53,227 nt of DNA from a phage. Positions 16,905 through 44,683 of this stretch are shown here, piece after piece. Location of the stretch: the NCBI GenBank assembly GCA_014161675.1, contig GCA_014161675.1_4760.2. The stretch is one strand, 5' to 3'. The notes beneath the pieces are model-generated. The model saw only the letters and a list, made by a program, of their open reading frames with translations, was not told the origin of the DNA and did not search any database. Each line of letters starts with the position of its first letter. Position 1 is the first letter of the stretch. A program made the translations under genes and the position numbers.

Positions 16905-17192
16905 TTATTTTCGGTTGTGGTCACGATATGTTTTAAAATATCCCTCGTACCACGGTAAAATATCTGGATTTTTACCACTATACAGACCTTTAACCATCAT
17001 GTCAATAAGGCCATCTGGTGTTTGATAGTTTCCAGCTTTTATAAGCTCTCTGATTAAAATCTCTCTGTATATGTCTTTCGGATCTTCGTAATCAACTTGT
17101 ATTGTGGTTGTTGTCTCGCTTAATTTGGTTTCTGGAGTATCTTGCATCGCCTTCCACCAATCTTTTGTAATCTTCATGTTATTGAATTGCAT
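16905..17192 (-). CDS. Hypothetical protein (95 aa)
   Basis: ORF in the early-gene island. Confidence 0.45.
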   Translation of the reverse strand: MQFNNMKITKDWWKAMQDTPETKLSETTTTIQVDYEDPKDIYREILIRELIKAGNYQTPDGLIDMMVKGLYSGKNPDILPWYEGYFKTYRDHNRK

Positions 17193-17203
17193 AATTTAAC
17201 CTC

Positions 17204-17962
17204 TTACTTGCAAACGTATTGATCTACATCAATTGCTCCACCGAATGTGGGATGACGTTTTTCAAATCGAATAGTTCCGTCGTTTGGTTCGAAAACGGAG
17301 TATTCATATAGATCTTTCTTGCCAACATTCTTATAAAACCCGCCTTTAGTCATAACGGTTTCTTGTACGTTTGCTTTGTGTACGTTGTATTCGTCAATGT
17401 ATACAAAATCAACCATCTTCCCATTTTTAATGGTTACTTTAAGATCTCCTGGTTGATTTCCATATTTGGCATACAGTGGCGCTTCTTTAATTTTTGTGGA
17501 AATTCCATCTTTCATACTCCACTCATAACGAACGGTGCATTGATAGGTAAAAGTTTCGACCTTCGGTTCTTCCACCACTTTTTCTTCCTGTTTCGGTTGT
17601 TCTTCGTCAACCTTCACGGAAGTCTCTGAATCGCTTTCTGACGCAGTTTCTTCTTTAGGTAATACATTCATCAAGTTTTGGATTTGAGCGTTGTATACAG
17701 CCTCCAGTGGCTGAATCTGCCCGATATTGATCATTGTATCACGAACAGTTTTATTCCAGTTGCGTTGCTCTTGTTTCAGAGACGGATCAATCTTAACAGC
17801 TTTAACATATACTTCATGAAGTTTAGAGTCCAGTGCGGAGATTGACTCATTAGCACAAATAAACTTCTCTGATTTGGTAGTAGCTTTAGCGCAATCAAAG
17901 GACGCAGCATTAGCACCGAAAGCAGTAGCGGAAAGAACGATAGCAGCGATAATGTTTTTCAT
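17204..17962 (-). CDS. Secreted LprI-like protein (DUF1311-like N-domain plus Cys-bracketed C-terminal domain)
   Basis: 252 aa. Signal peptide MKNIIAAIVLSATAFGANA. Then ASFDCAKATTKSEKFICANESISALDSKLHEVY...QEQRNWNKTVRD, matching the DUF1311/LprI N-domain pattern. Ser/Glu-rich linker, then a C-terminal domain bracketed by Cys (YQCTVRY...QYVCK). Confidence 0.7.
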   Translation of the reverse strand: MKNIIAAIVLSATAFGANAASFDCAKATTKSEKFICANESISALDSKLHEVYVKAVKIDPSLKQEQRNWNKTVRDTMINIGQIQPLEAVYNAQIQNLMNVLPKEETASESDSETSVKVDEEQPKQEEKVVEEPKVETFTYQCTVRYEWSMKDGISTKIKEAPLYAKYGNQPGDLKVTIKNGKMVDFVYIDEYNVHKANVQETVMTKGGFYKNVGKKDLYEYSVFEPNDGTIRFEKRHPTFGGAIDVDQYVCK

Positions 17963-17996
17963 AATATATTCCTCAATGTTTTGTCTTGATGGGAGT

Positions 17997-18025
17997 ATCT
18001 TACTACTCCCTTAATCCGGTGTCAA
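17997..18025 (-). promoter_or_regulatory. Sigma70-type early promoter
   Basis: Minus strand TTGACA (18020-18025), 17-bp spacer, TAAGAT (17997-18002). The -10 lies inside the inverted repeat GGGAGTA/TACTCCC. Followed by GAGGAA and the ATG at 17962. Confidence 0.6.
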
Positions 18026-18032
18026 CTACTTT

Positions 18033-18245
18033 TTAATTTTTACCCGCTCGTGCATTAATACGCATTTTCTGCATAGCCATGATCTGGCTTACAGCTTCTT
18101 CTTTACGTTCTTGCGTGATAACGTGACCAGATTCCGCAAACTCTCCCGCAACTTCTTCTACGATCTCGCGAACTTGAGAACGTCCAAAGATGCGGTTTCC
18201 TTCGTAGCTCATAAACTCTGTTACTACTTGCTCGATAGATTTCAT
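18033..18245 (-). CDS. Hypothetical protein (70 aa)
   Basis: ORF with AGGAGA upstream and its own promoter. Confidence 0.5.
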   Translation of the reverse strand: MKSIEQVVTEFMSYEGNRIFGRSQVREIVEEVAGEFAESGHVITQERKEEAVSQIMAMQKMRINARAGKN

Positions 18246-18275
18246 GTGATTCTCCTTTCGTTTGTTATGGGAGTA

Positions 18276-18304
18276 TGTTACTACTCCCTTATCTTTACGT
18301 CAAC
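18276..18304 (-). promoter_or_regulatory. Sigma70-type early promoter
   Basis: Minus strand TTGACG (18299-18304), 17-bp spacer, TAACAT (18276-18281), embedded in the same GGGAGTA/TACTCCC inverted repeat. Confidence 0.6.
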
Positions 18305-18310
18305 TAGTTT

Positions 18311-18553
18311 TTAGAAATTTTTCGCTTCTTCTTCGGTCATCATCACCGCGCATTCGTGCATAACTTTGAAAACCGGGTCAATCATATCGAATGCTTCGCG
18401 AGACAATTTACGAGAAGCGATTTTGATTGCTTCAACGTCTTCTACTACAGGAACAAAAACAGTTTTCAGTTCGTCGAGCACGGCAGCTTCTTTTTCATTC
18501 AGGAAGATTCCAGCGTCGTACAATGCAACTTCGATAACATTAACTTTAACCAT
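18311..18553 (-). CDS. Hypothetical protein (81 aa)
   Basis: Start placed at the ATG (MVKVNVIEV...) preceded by GGAGGAAAT. The track's longer ORF starts at a TTG inside the promoter and is rejected. Confidence 0.5.
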   Translation of the reverse strand: MVKVNVIEVALYDAGIFLNEKEAAVLDELKTVFVPVVEDVEAIKIASRKLSREAFDMIDPVFKVMHECAVMMTEEEAKNF

Positions 18554-18587
18554 TTTTATTTCCTCCAGTTCGTTTCGGTATGGGAGT

Positions 18588-18616
18588 ATAATACTACCGA
18601 TGACCTTTGGCGTCAA
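18588..18616 (-). promoter_or_regulatory. Sigma70-type early promoter
   Basis: Minus strand TTGACG (18611-18616), 17-bp spacer, TATTAT (18588-18593), then ACTCCCATACC. Confidence 0.6.
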
Positions 18617-18817
18617 CTAGTTTTTGTTATTTCCGTGAAAATTTTTCGTCGCCTCATGTGCTTTTCGCTTGGCTTCTTGTTGTGTTTGCTGGCGTGCTGC
18701 CTCTTGTGAAGCCATAACGGAAGCATTTGCAGCAGTTACAGCCGCTACCATCGCTGCGGTATTAGCATTTACAGTACATGCGCTCGCCAACAAAGCAATC
18801 GCAATCATTTTCTTCAT
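18617..18817 (-). CDS. Small secreted or lipoprotein-like peptide (66 aa)
   Basis: N-terminal signal sequence MKKMIAIALLASAC with a possible lipobox Cys; Ala/Gln-rich mature part; AAGGGGAAA upstream. Confidence 0.5.
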   Translation of the reverse strand: MKKMIAIALLASACTVNANTAAMVAAVTAANASVMASQEAARQQTQQEAKRKAHEATKNFHGNNKN

Positions 18818-18984
18818 AGTTTCCCCTTTAGGTTATCTTCGACCTTCACCCATTCCGCGTATTCTTGCGCGGCTACTTTCGGATTTAGGCCGTCTTCGTA
18901 CATTGCATCAAGTAATTCTTTGTCGGTGGGCTTATACCCTAGATAAGCCTCCACCTGATTTTTCCAAATTTTATACCAGTTCAT
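18814..18984 (-). CDS. Hypothetical protein (57 aa)
   Basis: Start trimmed to the ATG at 18984 (MNWYKIW...) to remove overlap with the upstream gene. Confidence 0.35.
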   Translation of the reverse strand: MNWYKIWKNQVEAYLGYKPTDKELLDAMYEDGLNPKVAAQEYAEWVKVEDNLKGKL

Positions 18985-18988
18985 ATTA

Positions 18989-19261
18989 TCACCAATCAAG
19001 AGCGCGTGTCTCTGCGTCTTCCCATGCTTGACCCATAACAGCCTTGAAAACATATTCTAGAGTATCATCTTTAGAGAATCCGAAGACCTTAGACGGGATA
19101 TCTTCAATTGCTACTCCCGCAACTTCTGCATTACGCGCTTGGCAATAATGCAACTCTAAGTTATCGAGATAGCGACCGCCTAATTTCTCCATATCATCCC
19201 AGCATTTCCAGTAACCTACTTTATCGGCAATTGCTAACACCTTGCTGTTTTTGTTGCTCAT
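18989..19261 (-). CDS. Hypothetical protein (90 aa)
   Basis: Start placed at the ATG (MSNKNSKVLAI...) preceded by AAGGAGA. The track's longer ORF runs through the promoter. Confidence 0.5.
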   Translation of the reverse strand: MSNKNSKVLAIADKVGYWKCWDDMEKLGGRYLDNLELHYCQARNAEVAGVAIEDIPSKVFGFSKDDTLEYVFKAVMGQAWEDAETRALDW

Positions 19262-19292
19262 CTTTGATTCTCCTTTTGTTTGGTATGGGTGT

Positions 19293-19321
19293 ATTATGCA
19301 ATGCTGGATTTGTGAAGTCAA
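19293..19321 (-). promoter_or_regulatory. Sigma70-type early promoter
   Basis: Minus strand TTGACT (19316-19321), 17-bp spacer, CATAAT (19293-19298), then the ACACCCATACC variant of the shared box. Confidence 0.5.
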
Positions 19322-19370
19322 CAACTTTTTAAAATAAAAAGCCGACCACAAGGATCGGCTTAATAATCAG

Positions 19371-19766
19371 TTACTTACTAAATTTCTTTTTGGCTTCGTC
19401 TACTGCATGAGATGCCAGCACCGCTGCCGCATGTGCACTTTTATCTGTGTTGCAGAGAACACCCAGATAAACATCACGCCAAAGTTTAATCATCTCGTAG
19501 ATCATATCAATATCATTTTCTTGTTTGTTGGCGATGCTATTCGTCGTTATCTGGTAAGGCAACGGCTTGATCTGTACTGGTTCAGCCATCGGGCTAATCG
19601 GTTTCGGATCAGTCATAATAGGTGCTGTTGTTGGTGGTGTTTTCCATACGCCATTATTCCACGGTTTAATCGTTGTGTCGTAAAGTTTATAAGGATTTTT
19701 GTCTGGGTCAACCATCCACGCATGATGAGTACCCAAACCATTTGAAGTGATGCGTCGTTCAGTCAT
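19371..19766 (-). CDS. Hypothetical protein (131 aa)
   Basis: ORF in the early region. Confidence 0.45.
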   Translation of the reverse strand: MTERRITSNGLGTHHAWMVDPDKNPYKLYDTTIKPWNNGVWKTPPTTAPIMTDPKPISPMAEPVQIKPLPYQITTNSIANKQENDIDMIYEMIKLWRDVYLGVLCNTDKSAHAAAVLASHAVDEAKKKFSK

Positions 19767-19769
19767 AAT

Positions 19770-19973
19770 TTATTTCCTCTCTGAAAATTCTTTCATCAAG
19801 CTGTCGATCTTTGCTCTGTGTTCTGGTGTGTTTGTCATCTCTGCTAATTTGCTCAGAGATTCAATAGTGATCCGGTTGGCTTCTTCCATAGTCTCAACGA
19901 CCATTGGCACAATCTTTTTATTGTTGTACACAAATGCAATATAACCGCCTTCTGGATATTCTTTCATAATCAA
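19770..19973 (-). CDS. Hypothetical protein (67 aa)
   Basis: ORF; its start overlaps the gene 52 stop (ATGA). Confidence 0.45.
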   Translation of the reverse strand: MIMKEYPEGGYIAFVYNNKKIVPMVVETMEEANRITIESLSKLAEMTNTPEHRAKIDSLMKEFSERK

Positions 19974-21331
19974 CCCTTCTTAAGTTCTTTAAGATCTTTC
20001 TTATATTCCTTCATTGCGGTCGTCTTTGTCCAATACTCATATTCACTATGATGTTTATCGGCATCTTTGACCAGTCGATCATACTCTTCTTGAGTAACGC
20101 TATACAATGGCATAGAAACTAGCTTATCGGCGTATGGACGCAGTTTTTCATGTCCATTGATGGATTGCATTACCTCGGCCTTTTTCTTGCCCTGTAGCTC
20201 GATTTCGCCCTTAATTACGCGGTCGATAAATTCGGCTTTAGCCATTGCATAATTGTATGCTTCCAGCGTTTCCGCTTGCATCAATTCAATGCGTTTATCG
20301 ACATACCCTAATCGGATTTCGACGAATCGACGGATCAGATCGCTCGCTTTCTCGAATACTTCTACTAAACCACGTTCATTAACCACTACGATATTCTGGG
20401 CTACTAACTGTGTTAGTTTAAAATCCTTCATGATTTGCTCATGTCGAGCGGATTCATCTTCGCTTTTGAAATAATCGCGTTTCAGTGTTACTTCAAATCT
20501 GAATCCATCCTTAGAGCAACGGTCATTATATGAGACAATCAGATCTTTTTCTTCCAGTGCATCCAGTACCGCTACATATTCTTCACGGTCGAACTTATAA
20601 GGAACTTCTGATATTGTCAGTTTAGTCTTGCCGTTTAGTTCATATGTACCCTCAAGAATCACACCATCGCGATCATCTCTCGGGATAACTTTACCCGTGA
20701 ATTTCGGGAATTGAACATTAGGTTCTTTATCCAGTTTTCCGGCAAGTGCTAGCTCTGTGCATTCAATGAGGCTTTCCAGTGAATGCGGTAAAATGTCAGT
20801 TTTATACCCTGAAGCAATACCACTAATACCATTAGCCAATACCATTGGCACAACTGGCAAGTAGAACGCTGGCGGGATGTGTTCCAGATCTTCGTGCTTA
20901 GGTGCGCAATTCATATCTTTATAGATTTTAAAGAAGTTTTCATGCACACGAGCAAAGATATAACGTGCCGCTCCTGCTTTCTGGACTAAACGCGATCCGA
21001 AGTTACCTTGACCGTCAAGTAGTGGAGTATTATTGCTCCATGTATTCGCCATGAGTGATCCGGCTTCTACGGCATTAGTTTCGCCGTGGTGATACCCCAA
21101 CTCAGCGACACCAGATCCAATATCTGCCATCTTACGGAATTTCTTACGGTCGCCTTTACTCTTTTGCAAAGCACATTCCATAACAAAGCGTTGCACTGGT
21201 TTAAGCCCATCCACTAATTGAGGAATCCCGCGTTCCTCGGCAGAATAGATCGCATATTCCTTAGCTTCATTATGTACAATGCTTTCAAGGCTGCGGTAAG
21301 TAACTGATTTATTCATCTTCACCTCATACAC
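19970..21331 (-). CDS. 52: DNA topoisomerase II medium subunit gp52
   Basis: 453 aa; recalled T4 gp52 similarity (DGLKPVQRF, GYHHGE, MANTW...PLLDGQGNFGSR, ARYIFAR, IPPAFYLP, KIMKDF). Confidence 0.92.
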   Translation of the reverse strand: MYEVKMNKSVTYRSLESIVHNEAKEYAIYSAEERGIPQLVDGLKPVQRFVMECALQKSKGDRKKFRKMADIGSGVAELGYHHGETNAVEAGSLMANTWSNNTPLLDGQGNFGSRLVQKAGAARYIFARVHENFFKIYKDMNCAPKHEDLEHIPPAFYLPVVPMVLANGISGIASGYKTDILPHSLESLIECTELALAGKLDKEPNVQFPKFTGKVIPRDDRDGVILEGTYELNGKTKLTISEVPYKFDREEYVAVLDALEEKDLIVSYNDRCSKDGFRFEVTLKRDYFKSEDESARHEQIMKDFKLTQLVAQNIVVVNERGLVEVFEKASDLIRRFVEIRLGYVDKRIELMQAETLEAYNYAMAKAEFIDRVIKGEIELQGKKKAEVMQSINGHEKLRPYADKLVSMPLYSVTQEEYDRLVKDADKHHSEYEYWTKTTAMKEYKKDLKELKKG

Positions 21332-26349: not shown

Positions 26350-26370
26350 CCTTTTGTTTTCGATGGGGAC

Positions 26371-26399
26371 ATTATGATATATCCCCGATCCAGTGTCAA
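26371..26399 (-). promoter_or_regulatory. Sigma70-type early promoter
   Basis: Minus strand TTGACA (26394-26399), 17-bp spacer, CATAAT (26371-26376). Confidence 0.55.
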
Positions 26400-26706: not shown

Positions 26707-26740
26707 TATTCAATCCTCATAAAAGAAAAGGGAGACTCCC

Positions 26741-26768
26741 ATTATAGAGAATCTCCCTTGTATGTCAA
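26741..26768 (-). promoter_or_regulatory. Sigma70-type early promoter
   Basis: Minus strand TTGACA (26763-26768), 16-bp spacer, TATAAT (26741-26746), flanked by the GGGAGA/TCTCCC inverted repeat. The -35 overlaps the stop of the HNH gene. Confidence 0.6.
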
Positions 26769-32225: not shown

Positions 32226-32980
32226 TATAAACCTACCTTCGCTTTCATCAATTCAATCCACGACGCATCAATCGGAAGCCCGTATTTCACGCGTTCTTTT
32301 TGTGCTGGCGTTAAGTTCTCATACTTAGAAAGAGATTCAATCAAAACGCTGGTATATTTTAGCACGATTTCGGTATTGTTTGCAATAGCCTTAAGTTTTT
32401 CCTCTTTCTTGTTGATTTCGCTAAGTGCTTGCTTGAGATCTGCAATTTTCTGATAACGTTCTTCCATACGGAAGAGAGTATTTTTAATCGCTCGCTCGGC
32501 TGCCTCTGCTTTCTCCGGTTCGTTGTGCTTTTTGTGGCGCTCGATTGCTAATTTCTTTTCTTCGATTGCCATTTCCTGATTTTTGATGCGATTCTCGTTA
32601 AGTTCGATCCACTCGATGTACTTCGCACGTAGGGCAATTTCATCATCAGAAAGTTTACCTTTAGTTCCCAGTTCCTGGATCTCTTTAAGAGATTCGATAG
32701 TGTGATTGCCACGGAAAGAATTGTATTTCAGTTTAACCGGAATTACATTGCCATCAACATATCCCAGATTGCAATCAATGCGCTCTAAGGAGAGTCCGTC
32801 ATCACCTTCACCGAAAGCCTCACCTGAATAGGCACAATGAGTCTGACGGTAAATGTTACGAACAGTGACTAAGCTCATAGAGAAGTCTTTGTTGCGACGT
32901 GAAGCACCAGCCATGATAGAGTTCAGCCGGAAAACAACCAGCGCCAATTCTTCGTTAGATTTAAAAGCAAACAGTTTCAT
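32225..32980 (-). CDS. Hypothetical protein with degenerate HNH-like N-terminal signature and coiled-coil C-terminus (positional counterpart of T4 srd)
   Basis: 251 aa; N-terminal CAYSGEAFGEGDDGLSLERIDCNLGYVDGNV resembles an HNH core with the catalytic His replaced; the C-terminal half is Glu/Lys-rich. Position after dda matches T4 srd, but identity is not verified. Confidence 0.4.
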   Translation of the reverse strand: MKLFAFKSNEELALVVFRLNSIMAGASRRNKDFSMSLVTVRNIYRQTHCAYSGEAFGEGDDGLSLERIDCNLGYVDGNVIPVKLKYNSFRGNHTIESLKEIQELGTKGKLSDDEIALRAKYIEWIELNENRIKNQEMAIEEKKLAIERHKKHNEPEKAEAAERAIKNTLFRMEERYQKIADLKQALSEINKKEEKLKAIANNTEIVLKYTSVLIESLSKYENLTPAQKERVKYGLPIDASWIELMKAKVGL

Positions 32981-33009
32981 AATTGATTCTCCTTAGTTGG
33001 TATGTGTGT

Positions 33010-33039
33010 ATTATTGTCTATCTGGTTTGTGCTGTCAAC
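33010..33039 (-). promoter_or_regulatory. Candidate sigma70-type promoter
   Basis: Minus strand TTGACA (33034-33039), 18-bp spacer, AATAAT (33010-33015), then ACACACATACC resembling the shared early-promoter box. Confidence 0.4.
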
Positions 33040-33041
33040 AC

Positions 33042-33547: not shown

Positions 33548-33577
33548 TAAAAAAGCCTCCAATCTTTCGACGGGAGG
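33548..33577 (-). terminator. Terminator-like hairpin that contains the ribosome-binding site of the next gene
   Basis: Minus strand GCCTCC-12 nt loop-GGAGGC followed by TTTTTTATT and then the ATG at 33545; the downstream arm GGAGG doubles as the Shine-Dalgarno. Confidence 0.5.
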
Positions 33578-33614
33578 CATAATAAAACCATTATAGAGTA
33601 TTGTCAACTAATTT

Positions 33615-42628: not shown

Positions 42629-42657
42629 ATTATAGGGGAATCGACCTAGTTTGTCAA
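42629..42657 (-). promoter_or_regulatory. Sigma70-type promoter upstream of gene 43
   Basis: Minus strand TTGACA (42652-42657), 17-bp spacer, TATAAT (42629-42634), in the regA-43 intergenic region. Confidence 0.55.
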
Positions 42658-44654: not shown

Positions 44655-44683
44655 ATTATATTAGTCGGTGTAGCTGGAGTCAA
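44655..44683 (-). promoter_or_regulatory. Sigma70-type promoter at the end of gene 45
   Basis: Minus strand TTGACT (44678-44683), 17-bp spacer, TATAAT (44655-44660). Confidence 0.55.

Follow-up and report, generated by a model that had tools for sequence, protein, structure and literature searches.

Four promoter elements on the minus strand of a T4-type coliphage, here called P1 to P4, are very probably (at roughly 85%) promoter-early stem-loops (PeSLs), a composite type of intergenic cassette carried by T4-like phages of the RB49/phi1 type, and the inverted repeat found in two of them is the stem-loop module of such a cassette. The DNA analysed, referred to throughout as the window, is 53,227 nucleotides long and comes from a Krischvirus, an RB49-like phage whose identity to 59 Krischvirus genomes, RB49, Phi1 and GEC-3S among them, is 95-97%. 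A PeSL, as defined by Arbiol et al. (2010, PMC2839356), combines a sigma70-consensus promoter with an AT-rich upstream part containing a stop codon and with a stem-loop, and is followed by a Shine-Dalgarno sequence and an ATG. The stem-loop is G-rich and then C-rich and lies mostly between the -35 and -10 hexamers or overlaps the -10, five positions relative to the promoter having been described; there are 51-52 PeSLs per genome, largely preceding ORFans in hyperplastic regions, and in RB49-type (Krischvirus) coliphages they are the promoters of early genes and the places where recombination exchanges small genes (PMC2839356). The PeSL cassettes of RB49 and phi1 are also treated by Comeau et al. 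(2014, PMC4122927). Because these cassettes have already been published for RB49-type coliphages, P1 to P4 belong to a known type, and the observation stands without being new.

The initial annotation had proposed four minus-strand promoters with a common extended consensus, and these are present where it placed them, with the -35 at 18025, 18303, 18616 and 19321. They read TTGACN-17-TAAGAT/TAACAT/TATTAT/CATAAT, followed by AC(T/A)CCCAT, and the spacer is 17 nt at each of P1, P2, P3 and P4. The box 3' of the -10, ACTCCCATCAA at P1, ACTCCCATAAC at P2, ACTCCCATACC at P3 and ACACCCATACC at P4, has 8 to 11 of 11 positions in common. Matches to TTGACA-N17-TATAAT reach 9 to 10 of 12 positions at P1 to P4 and 12 of 12 at the best family members in the window. 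Across the window, the minus strand has 24 sites, and the plus strand 0, that agree with TTGACA-16/18-TATAAT at 11 or 12 of the 12 positions, against 0.9 +/- 1.0 in dinucleotide-shuffled controls. The distance from the -35 to the ATG is constant at twelve sites in the window (54-64 nt; 58-63 nt at P1 to P4), and at the 3' end of all four elements the downstream gene begins with its Shine-Dalgarno sequence and start codon, as in a PeSL. The stop codon of the upstream gene lies in A/T-rich sequence 7, 7, 0 and 49 nt 5' of the -35 at P1, P2, P3 and P4, respectively. The earlier claim that each -35 overlaps this stop is therefore right about proximity at P1 to P3 (0-7 nt, abutting at P3 only) and wrong about overlap, which occurs nowhere, and about P4; the conserved feature is a TAG directly 5' of TTGAC.

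The reading of these sites as predicted early sigma70-type promoters agrees with earlier work, as RB49 orthologues appear among the predicted early promoters of Nolan et al. (2006, PMC1524935) as Pe:158760, 159267 and 159769, and the GEC-3S GenBank record annotates promoters corresponding to P1 to P4. The RB49 early consensus has G at -33, T or C at -12 and C at -3..-1 (PMC1524935), where 5'-end mapping of RB49 early promoters is attributed to Desplats et al. (2002). The contrast that had been drawn with the T4 early -35 is likewise correct and already in print. The RB49 set resembles ours in its orthologous sites and its consensus; in that study promoters only were scored and the inverted repeat was left undiscussed.

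P1 (17960..18035, minus strand) begins at the stop codon of an upstream 70-aa gene (18035-18033) and continues with TAG at 18028-18026, the -35 TTGACA at 18025-18020 and the -10 TAAGAT at 18002-17997, ahead of the ATG at 17962 of a 252-aa gene. The arms of its stem are GGGAGTA at 18010-18004 and TACTCCC at 17997-17991, with the predicted start, an A, at 17990, and its orthologues are RB49 Pe:158760 and an annotated GEC-3S promoter. P2 (18243..18313, minus strand) has its stop at 18313-18311, the -35 TTGACG at 18303-18298, the -10 TAACAT at 18280-18275 and the ATG of a 70-aa ORFan at 18245; its arms, GGGAGTA at 18288-18282 and TACTCCC at 18275-18269, have the same form, and its RB49 orthologue is Pe:159267. 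The perfect GGGAGTA-N6-TACTCCC said to enclose the -10 in the first two promoters was thus recovered at both. At P3 (18551..18619, minus strand) the stop TAG at 18619-18617 abuts the -35 TTGACG at 18616-18611, and the -10 TATTAT (18593-18588) and the box (18587-18577) precede the ATG at 18553 of an 80-aa ORFan; the site is an annotated promoter in GEC-3S. P3 retains the 3' arm alone: the in-register 5' arm, ATCGGTA, is degenerate here and decayed in every relative aligned, and pairing is possible for GGTA/TACT only. A hairpin at P3 was rejected, since the 5' arm is degenerate and an alternative fold of 6 bp with a 14-nt loop does not outperform shuffled sequences (z = -0.72). P4 (19259..19373, minus strand) has its stop at 19373-19371, the -35 TTGACT at 19321-19316, the -10 CATAAT at 19298-19293, the box at 19292-19282 and the ATG of a 90-aa ORFan at 19261. 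It is without the 5' arm of the dyad and carries, 5' of the -35, a terminator hairpin at 19361-19339 (AAGCCGATC-cttgt-GGTCGGCTT, then a T-run). Its counterparts are RB49 Pe:159769 with the RB49 TransTerm terminator 159775-159793, and a promoter and terminator in GEC-3S. Pfam gave no family for five of the six products downstream of the promoters, and its sole match among seven neighbouring products was an LprI domain in the 252-aa protein. An Rfam scan of 17000-20000 returned just one chance match below threshold.

In all, the window holds 15 PeSL-type elements of fixed geometry, whose stems cover all five published positions. The relatives suggested at 33.0, 26.4 and 26.7 kb are real, with -35 elements at 33038, 26399 and 26768, all on the minus strand. 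The element at 26365..26399 (TTGACA-17-CATAAT, ATG 26340) encloses its -10 in a stem GGGGATAT/ATGTCCCC with one G·T pair. At 26728..26768 (TTGACA-16-TATAAT, ATG 26706) the -10 is in the loop of a 13-bp stem with two G·T pairs, and TTTTCTTTT comes next. At 32978..33041, TTGACA-17-AATAAT is followed by ACACACATACC and the ATG at 32980, and a stem was not detected. A further element at 33555..33607 (minus strand, TTGACA-17-TATTAT) has the stem GCCTCC...GGAGGC plus T6 located 3' of the -10, its 5' arm upstream of the predicted start and the Shine-Dalgarno sequence within its 3' arm.

Comparison with the published PeSLs of RB49 and phi1 shows the same genus, architecture, hyperplastic location and tie to indels between close relatives, as well as a G-rich then C-rich stem over the -10 and the Shine-Dalgarno sequence and ATG of an ORFan. 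Nothing essential differs: the window is another isolate, with cassette order as in GEC-3S, and the stem at P1 and P2 is GGGAGTA/TACTCCC in place of a plain G-run then C-run. Read 5' to 3', each cassette consists of an AT-rich stretch with the upstream stop, a near-consensus host sigma70 promoter and a C-rich discriminator, with the predicted start at the A of CCCAT; a short leader rich in A and C then leads to a Shine-Dalgarno sequence and to the ATG of a small gene whose function is unknown. These promoters would be used by the host's RNA polymerase right after infection, as published for the family. The P1 and P2 arms lie at -20..-14 and -7..-1 relative to the predicted start; because the hairpin is wholly upstream of the cassette's own start, it would form only in RNA that enters from the preceding cassette. 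In such read-through RNA it most likely acts as an attenuator or pause site, or caps the 3' end left by processing, and by doing so may isolate each one-gene cassette transcriptionally. In lacZ tests, which covered PeSL206/205, 193/192 and 211/210 only, promoter activity and terminator or attenuator activity were reported (PMC2839356); the one stem-loop assayed in the literature is that of a PeSL other than P1 and P2. The P4 upstream hairpin and the stems at 26768 and 33607 resemble intrinsic (Rho-independent) terminators in having a GC-rich stem and a T-run. In contrast, the hairpins of P1 and P2, with 7 bp and about -10 to -12 kcal/mol, are followed by the tails ATCAAGAC and ATAACAAA, without a U-tract, and are not canonical terminators; TransTerm did not call their RB49 counterparts. 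A scan flagged the P2 palindrome as a plus-strand terminator, a reading set aside on the grounds that P1 has no T-rich tail and that all local genes run on the minus strand.

Taken singly, a 7-bp inverted repeat is nothing unusual in this DNA (42 in the window, against 24.6 +/- 5.9 in shuffles), and the identical repeat in identical register at P1 and P2 reflects paralogy. Repressor operators placed over the -10, such as LexA boxes and lambda operators, are dyads that span about 20 bp with the -10 at their centre, which is the arrangement at P1 and P2, where a 20-bp dyad covers the -10 and the discriminator. The initial annotation had compared the repeat to an operator. On this reading it would be a duplex site where a dimeric protein of phage or host binds across the -10, turning off a group of early promoters. 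In its favour, the arms are repeated at about 10 promoters in several Krischvirus hyperplastic regions, where the arms are near-invariant across at least 10 paralogues and the adjacent 9-nt spacer is variable, about half conserved. RB49-type phages are also without MotA and middle promoters (PMC1524935), which leaves the shut-off of their early transcription unsettled. Beyond this one form, however, the operator reading is not supported. The stems of 11 PeSLs in the window are unlike in sequence, length and position, lying in elements other than P1 and P2 upstream of the -35, within the spacer or downstream of the -10, and P3 and P4 have promoter and box without the dyad. An operator calls for half-site and spacing to be conserved at every promoter it regulates, with departures that bear no relation to base pairing, and across the PeSL family this is not so; conservation of the arms holds within the GGGAGTA/TACTCCC subfamily. 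In unrelated phage contigs, these arms flank loops of 3, 6, 9 and 10 nt, which a single dimer geometry does not fit. Unlike LexA and lambda operators, PeSL stems vary in sequence and position and their deviations obey RNA pairing rules: 14 of 14 non-Watson-Crick pairs in the window stems have the form G·T when read on the sense strand, and a fully compensated GGGGGTA/TACCCCC exists. We know of no cognate binding protein, and we consider the operator reading quite improbable.

Further evidence favours a stem that is read as RNA. In 11 of 11 stems, the sense fold is at least as stable as the antisense fold, with sums of -158.4 and -121.0 kcal/mol, respectively. Besides the compensated form, paralogue variants of the palindrome include two G·U, a change of the outer AT..AT to AC..GT, and one mismatch; in GEC-3S, P2 has a disruptive G·A mismatch in the stem. 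Within the palindromic subfamily, 90.7% of cells are paired and both sides have changed in 2 pairs, a thin covariation that is equalled by 10 of 500 shuffles. Judged from these sequences, the wobbles, sense-strand stability and paralogue changes fit an RNA hairpin, whereas a double-stranded operator predicts none of them. A cruciform or N4-type hairpin promoter was also rejected, as a canonical -35 and -10 are present, the arms are just 7 bp long and wobbles confined to the sense strand would mismatch on the other strand.

The same data bear on whether the P1/P2 repeat does anything at all. It might be a hitchhiker in a PeSL variant that spread recently and whose copies recombination keeps similar; P1 and P2 are indeed paralogous, and the decayed P3 5' arm and the GEC-3S mismatch come with no sign of cassette loss. 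Against this, the arms are conserved far above the adjacent spacer across paralogues, compensatory and wobble variants occur, and promoters of unrelated phages chosen by the 3' arm only often have a complementary 5' arm. We regard a functionless repeat as next to excluded. Pure structural constraint, for its part, does not fully explain near-invariant arms. GGGAGTA-N6-TACTCCC may mark a PeSL subfamily, with about 10 copies per Krischvirus genome, at which a specific protein recognizing duplex, RNA or DNA hairpin coordinates a subset of early cassettes, a proposal we hold unlikely. Phage sigma70 promoters could also have arrived convergently at a -10 held in a hairpin loop and paired to the discriminator. 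The arms were seen as well in unrelated contigs of viral origin, a 350-kb contig and the promoters of tRNA-Gly genes among them. Megablast of a piece of this 350-kb IMG/VR contig against the phage collection gave no match.

Alignment of the window with eight relatives over the 1.4 kb that contains P1 to P4 revealed three gene-cassette indels, each with at least one endpoint inside a PeSL. Makalu1, FL04 and SSG23 carry a 68-aa gene cassette inside P4, between CATAATACA and CCCATACC, and the second PeSL of this cassette has GGGAGTA-N6-TACTCCC; by this comparison P4 is a chimeric PeSL, its joint falling exactly at the -10/discriminator segment, which in the PeSL next to it makes up the 3' arm. 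RB49 and Phi1 lack 18311-18817, homology ending directly upstream of the P2 -35, and in about half of the 59 genomes homology is lost just 5' of P2. The RB49ORF261c cassette is missing from the window phage, with the junction in AAAAAGTAGTTGACA of P1. Given about 70 nt common to the cassettes, PeSLs double as homology patches for recombination that inserts, deletes or swaps small genes, as the relatives compared here show directly.

Arbiol et al. speculated that the stem-loop might instead act as DNA, as a site for a recombination protein or a single-stranded hairpin that targets cassette exchange, and noted that a protein might target the conserved GN-loop-CN motif (PMC2839356). The presence in a PeSL of at least one endpoint of each of the three indels, and a P4 joint at the segment corresponding to the 3' arm of its neighbour, speak for such targeting. 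However, two of the three junctions are in the AT-rich/-35 part, off the stem, and a 7-bp repeat is too short for cruciform extrusion. T4-type recombination requires short homology only, so that plain homologous recombination suffices. No dedicated recombinase has been identified in PeSL-bearing phages (PMC2839356). A DNA-level role of the stem is, in our view, very improbable. Recombination through the shared PeSL sequence, the reading we prefer, also sets these cassettes apart from morons and integron cassettes, with which Arbiol et al. compared them: those are likewise single genes travelling with their own promoter and terminator, whereas in a PeSL the regulatory element is itself the recombination site and an integrase is not involved.

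The window provides a textbook case of PeSLs, with three PeSL-bounded indels in 1.4 kb, and no new kind of element. PeSLs illustrate how regulation can stay intact when small accessory genes are exchanged among large lytic phages: each gene moves together with a promoter, stop signals and an insulating stem-loop that belong to it, and the sequence shared between cassettes serves as the site of recombination.

The minus strand carries four intergenic elements of one layout, P1 to P4, within 17.96-19.37 kb, with -35 hexamers at 18025, 18303, 18616 and 19321, respectively. P1 reads aaaaagTAG-TTGACA-ccggattaaGGGAGTAg-TAAGAT-ACTCCCatcaag...gagg...ATG, P2 reads ...aaaacTAG-TTGACG-taaagataaGGGAGTAg-TAACAT-ACTCCCataac...aggag...ATG, and P3 reads ...aaaacTAG-TTGACG-ccaaaggtcatcggtag-TATTAT-ACTCCCatacc...ggagg...ATG. 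P4 begins with a hairpin and T-run and continues aaaaagttg-TTGACT-...-CATAAT-ACACCCatacc...aggag...ATG. The initial annotation described four similar minus-strand promoters with 17-nt spacers, and a consensus scan bears this out, with sigma70 scores of 9-10 out of 12 and 17-nt spacers; 58-63 nt separate the -35 from the ATG. The annotation also held that each -35 overlaps the upstream stop codon, which is too strong, as the stop codon of the preceding gene lies 7, 7, 0 and 49 nt 5' of the -35 at P1, P2, P3 and P4. The perfect 7-bp palindrome GGGAGTA-N6-TACTCCC reported for the first two is present at P1 and P2 and, among the four, is restricted to them: P3 keeps the 3' arm and has ATCGGTA at the expected place of the 5' arm, and neither arm is intact at P4. 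At its N-terminus the 252-aa product encoded 3' of P1 (17204-17962, minus strand) resembles a signal peptide, and it weakly matches the LprI lysozyme inhibitor domain (PF07007 in Pfam, E = 3e-5).

The region shares 95-97% identity with 59 genomes of Krischvirus, the RB49-like "pseudo-T-even" coliphages; it adjoins topoisomerase gene 52 and corresponds to RB49 ORF260c-265c and phi1 ORF262-267. Nolan et al. (2006, PMC1524935) listed RB49 early promoters Pe:158760, 158983, 159267 and 159769 and a TransTerm terminator at 159775-159793. By coordinates, Pe:158760, Pe:159267 and Pe:159769 are the orthologues of P1, P2 and P4, Pe:158983 belongs to a cassette missing from the window, and the terminator is the hairpin 5' of P4. 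The GenBank record of GEC-3S marks each of the four promoters and its hexamers, as well as the terminator. P1 to P4 are therefore an already known kind of element, annotated at orthologous sites, and their interpretation as early promoters was right. The RB49 consensus has G at -33, T or C at -12 and C at -3 to -1, and is stated to agree with 5'-end mapping of early RB49 transcripts (Nolan et al. 2006, PMC1524935). Since the -10 ends at -7, the conserved motif that follows reads A(-6)C T C C C(-1)A(+1), so that the "ACTCCCAT box" comprises the discriminator and the start site. The entire element was named PeSL, for promoter-early stem-loop, by Arbiol et al. (2010, PMC2839356), and comprises a sigma70-consensus promoter, a stop codon in an AT-rich upstream part, a stem-loop in any of five possible positions, mostly between the hexamers or over the -10, and a Shine-Dalgarno sequence followed by ATG at its 3' end. 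The same authors counted about 51-52 PeSLs per genome, chiefly 5' of ORFans in hyperplastic regions, demonstrated promoter and terminator activity with lacZ fusions in copies other than P1 to P4, and proposed that modules are shuffled, and mini-circles formed, at PeSLs. PeSLs have since been extended to further T4-like phages (Comeau et al. 2014, PMC4122927).

The minus strand of the window has 24 sigma70 consensus matches of 11 or 12 out of 12 and the plus strand has 0; dinucleotide shuffles yield 0.9 +/- 1.0. Near-consensus matches on the coding strand are hugely enriched throughout the window, many within long ORFs (for example 25784, 23826, 22937, 3804, 2898 and 2217). Fifteen sites have the common cassette geometry, including those with -35 at 33038, 26399 and 26768, the relatives suspected at 33.0, 26.4 and 26.7 kb. 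PeSLs at 42657 and 39928 lie on either side of an 892-aa ORF (42596-39918) that, judged by position, is probably the gene 43 DNA polymerase; gene 43 has flanking PeSLs in RB49 and phi1 (Arbiol et al. 2010, PMC2839356). Single 7-bp inverted repeats are commonplace in the window (42 seen vs 24.6 +/- 5.9 in shuffles). An identical repeat in identical register at P1 and P2 is paralogy and no coincidence, and the blocks common to both were recovered by a repeat finder.

Aligning the window with kaaroe, Makalu_001, GEC-3S, RB49, Phi1, FL04 and SSG23 revealed three indels of cassettes, each a small gene with its own PeSL, within 1.4 kb. In Makalu_001, FL04 and SSG23 a 68-aa gene lies between CATAATACA and CCCATACC of P4, followed by its own palindromic PeSL, TTGACA-ccagaacaa-GGGAGTA-gtaaNa-TACTCCC. 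P4 of the window is therefore a chimera in which the left part of one PeSL meets the right part of a palindromic one at their common ATAC(A/T)CCCA, an origin that explains why it has the box without the dyad. The second indel, 18311-18817 (two genes), is missing from RB49 and Phi1 and has the P2 -35 as its right boundary; in a wider search, homology ends at 18324 in about half of the 59 genomes. The third is the ORF261c cassette, whose own PeSL has the stem GGGGATCGgcGATCCCC between the hexamers; it is present in RB49, Phi1, Makalu_001, FL04 and SSG23 and missing from the window and GEC-3S, and the junction falls within AAAAAGTAGTTGACA of P1. This behaviour matches the description of RB49 and phi1 PeSLs by Arbiol et al. 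(2010, PMC2839356). An extra gene, phi1 ORF263.1, is inserted just 5' of a PeSL in kaaroe and Phi1; kaaroe_183 (L001 1601-1673), which is missing from the window, holds an annotated internal tandem repeat, and Phi1 ORF263.1 is its shorter form.

The palindrome had been read as an operator, a claim that the wider set of stems does not support. The 15 PeSLs contain 11 stems of 6-14 bp that occupy every published position and vary in sequence, including GGGAGTA/TACTCCC, CGGGGA/TCCCCG, AAGGGAGATTCTC/GGGAGTCTCCCTT, GGGGATAT/ATGTCCCC, GGCGGGT.../...ACCCGCC and GCCTCC/GGAGGC. All 14 non-Watson-Crick pairs are G·T on the sense strand and thus A·C mismatches on the opposite strand, and on folding in both orientations the sense energy is equal or lower in 11 of 11 stems (sums -158.4 vs -121.0 kcal/mol). 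An IMG/VR scan fixing only the promoter and 3' arm returned Krischvirus paralogues from other hyperplastic regions. Among 24 distinct sequences of the GGGAGTA/TACTCCC subfamily, selected by 5' arm alone, the 7-bp core is perfect in 20, fully compensated in one (GGGGGTA/TACCCCC), a G·U variant in two (GGGGGTA/TACTCCC in ECD7, GGGAGTA/TACTCTC in Phi1) and disrupted in one (TACTACC in GEC-3S); in one outer pair, C-G replaces T-A. Paired cells make up 90.7%, with two pairs changed on both sides, and 10 of 500 shuffles do equally well, a thin covariation that nonetheless points toward a hairpin. In unrelated contigs chosen by TAnnAT-ACTCCCAT alone, the upstream sequence often includes a complementary GGGAGT, and the loops are 3, 6, 9 or 10 nt long. 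Taken together, stem diversity, sense-strand wobbles and folds, compensated variants and variable loops favour a sense-strand structure, most simply RNA, over a duplex operator of fixed geometry. At some 10 paralogous sites the GGGAGTA/TACTCCC arms hardly vary, more than complementarity alone would fully explain, and conservation of the adjoining 9-nt spacer is only about half, which would suit a sequence-specific binder, either an operator protein or a recombination factor, the latter a speculation of Arbiol et al. (2010, PMC2839356); we consider such a binder improbable.

Sigma70-type promoters with the -10 within a hairpin bearing the same arms, such as ATGGGAGTA-tNa-TACTCCCAT and GGGAGT-TATAAT-ACTCCC, occur in unrelated viral contigs at IMG/VR loci L033 and L083 (both on one 350-kb contig that has no close counterpart in the phage collection), L008, L019, L074, L061, L071 and L078; at L008, L019 and L074 they lie directly 5' of a tRNA-Gly gene. 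Within the window, a stem at 44648-44623 (GGGGAGT-gtaaat-ACTCCCC, then GTTTT), nearly identical to that of P1 and P2, sits 3' of the -10 of a promoter at 44683, at the extreme 5' end of the predicted transcript.

Work by others on the family has shown its promoters to be strong sigma70 promoters and a PeSL stem to be capable of terminating transcription. At P1 and P2 the arms occupy -20 to -14 and -7 to -1, upstream of the start, and we therefore infer that their own transcripts lack the hairpin, which only RNA from the upstream cassette could carry. The 5' arm lies entirely upstream of the predicted start in 8 of 11 stems, which suggests that PeSL stems act on read-through RNA. The clearest case is the PeSL at 33607-33545, where the 5' arm is just upstream of the predicted start and the stem GCCTCC...GGAGGC contains the Shine-Dalgarno sequence, followed by T6 (U6) and ATG; termination or masking would affect read-through RNA alone and leave the cassette's own transcript free. 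Stems with a U-tract (the P4 hairpin, 26768 and 33607) would be full terminators. Those of P1 and P2 have no U-tract, were not among the RB49 TransTerm calls (Nolan et al. 2006, PMC1524935), and probably serve to pause or attenuate transcription or to cap 3' ends. In 9 of the 15 PeSLs (1445, 18025, 18303, 18616, 26399, 26768, 33607, 42657 and 49462) the AT-rich part and the -35 close all three frames within 30 nt, usually by TAA at -10, TAG at -3 and TGA within TTGACA. Such a three-frame stop suits a portable cassette and amounts to a built-in universal stop with which any ORF could be joined upstream.
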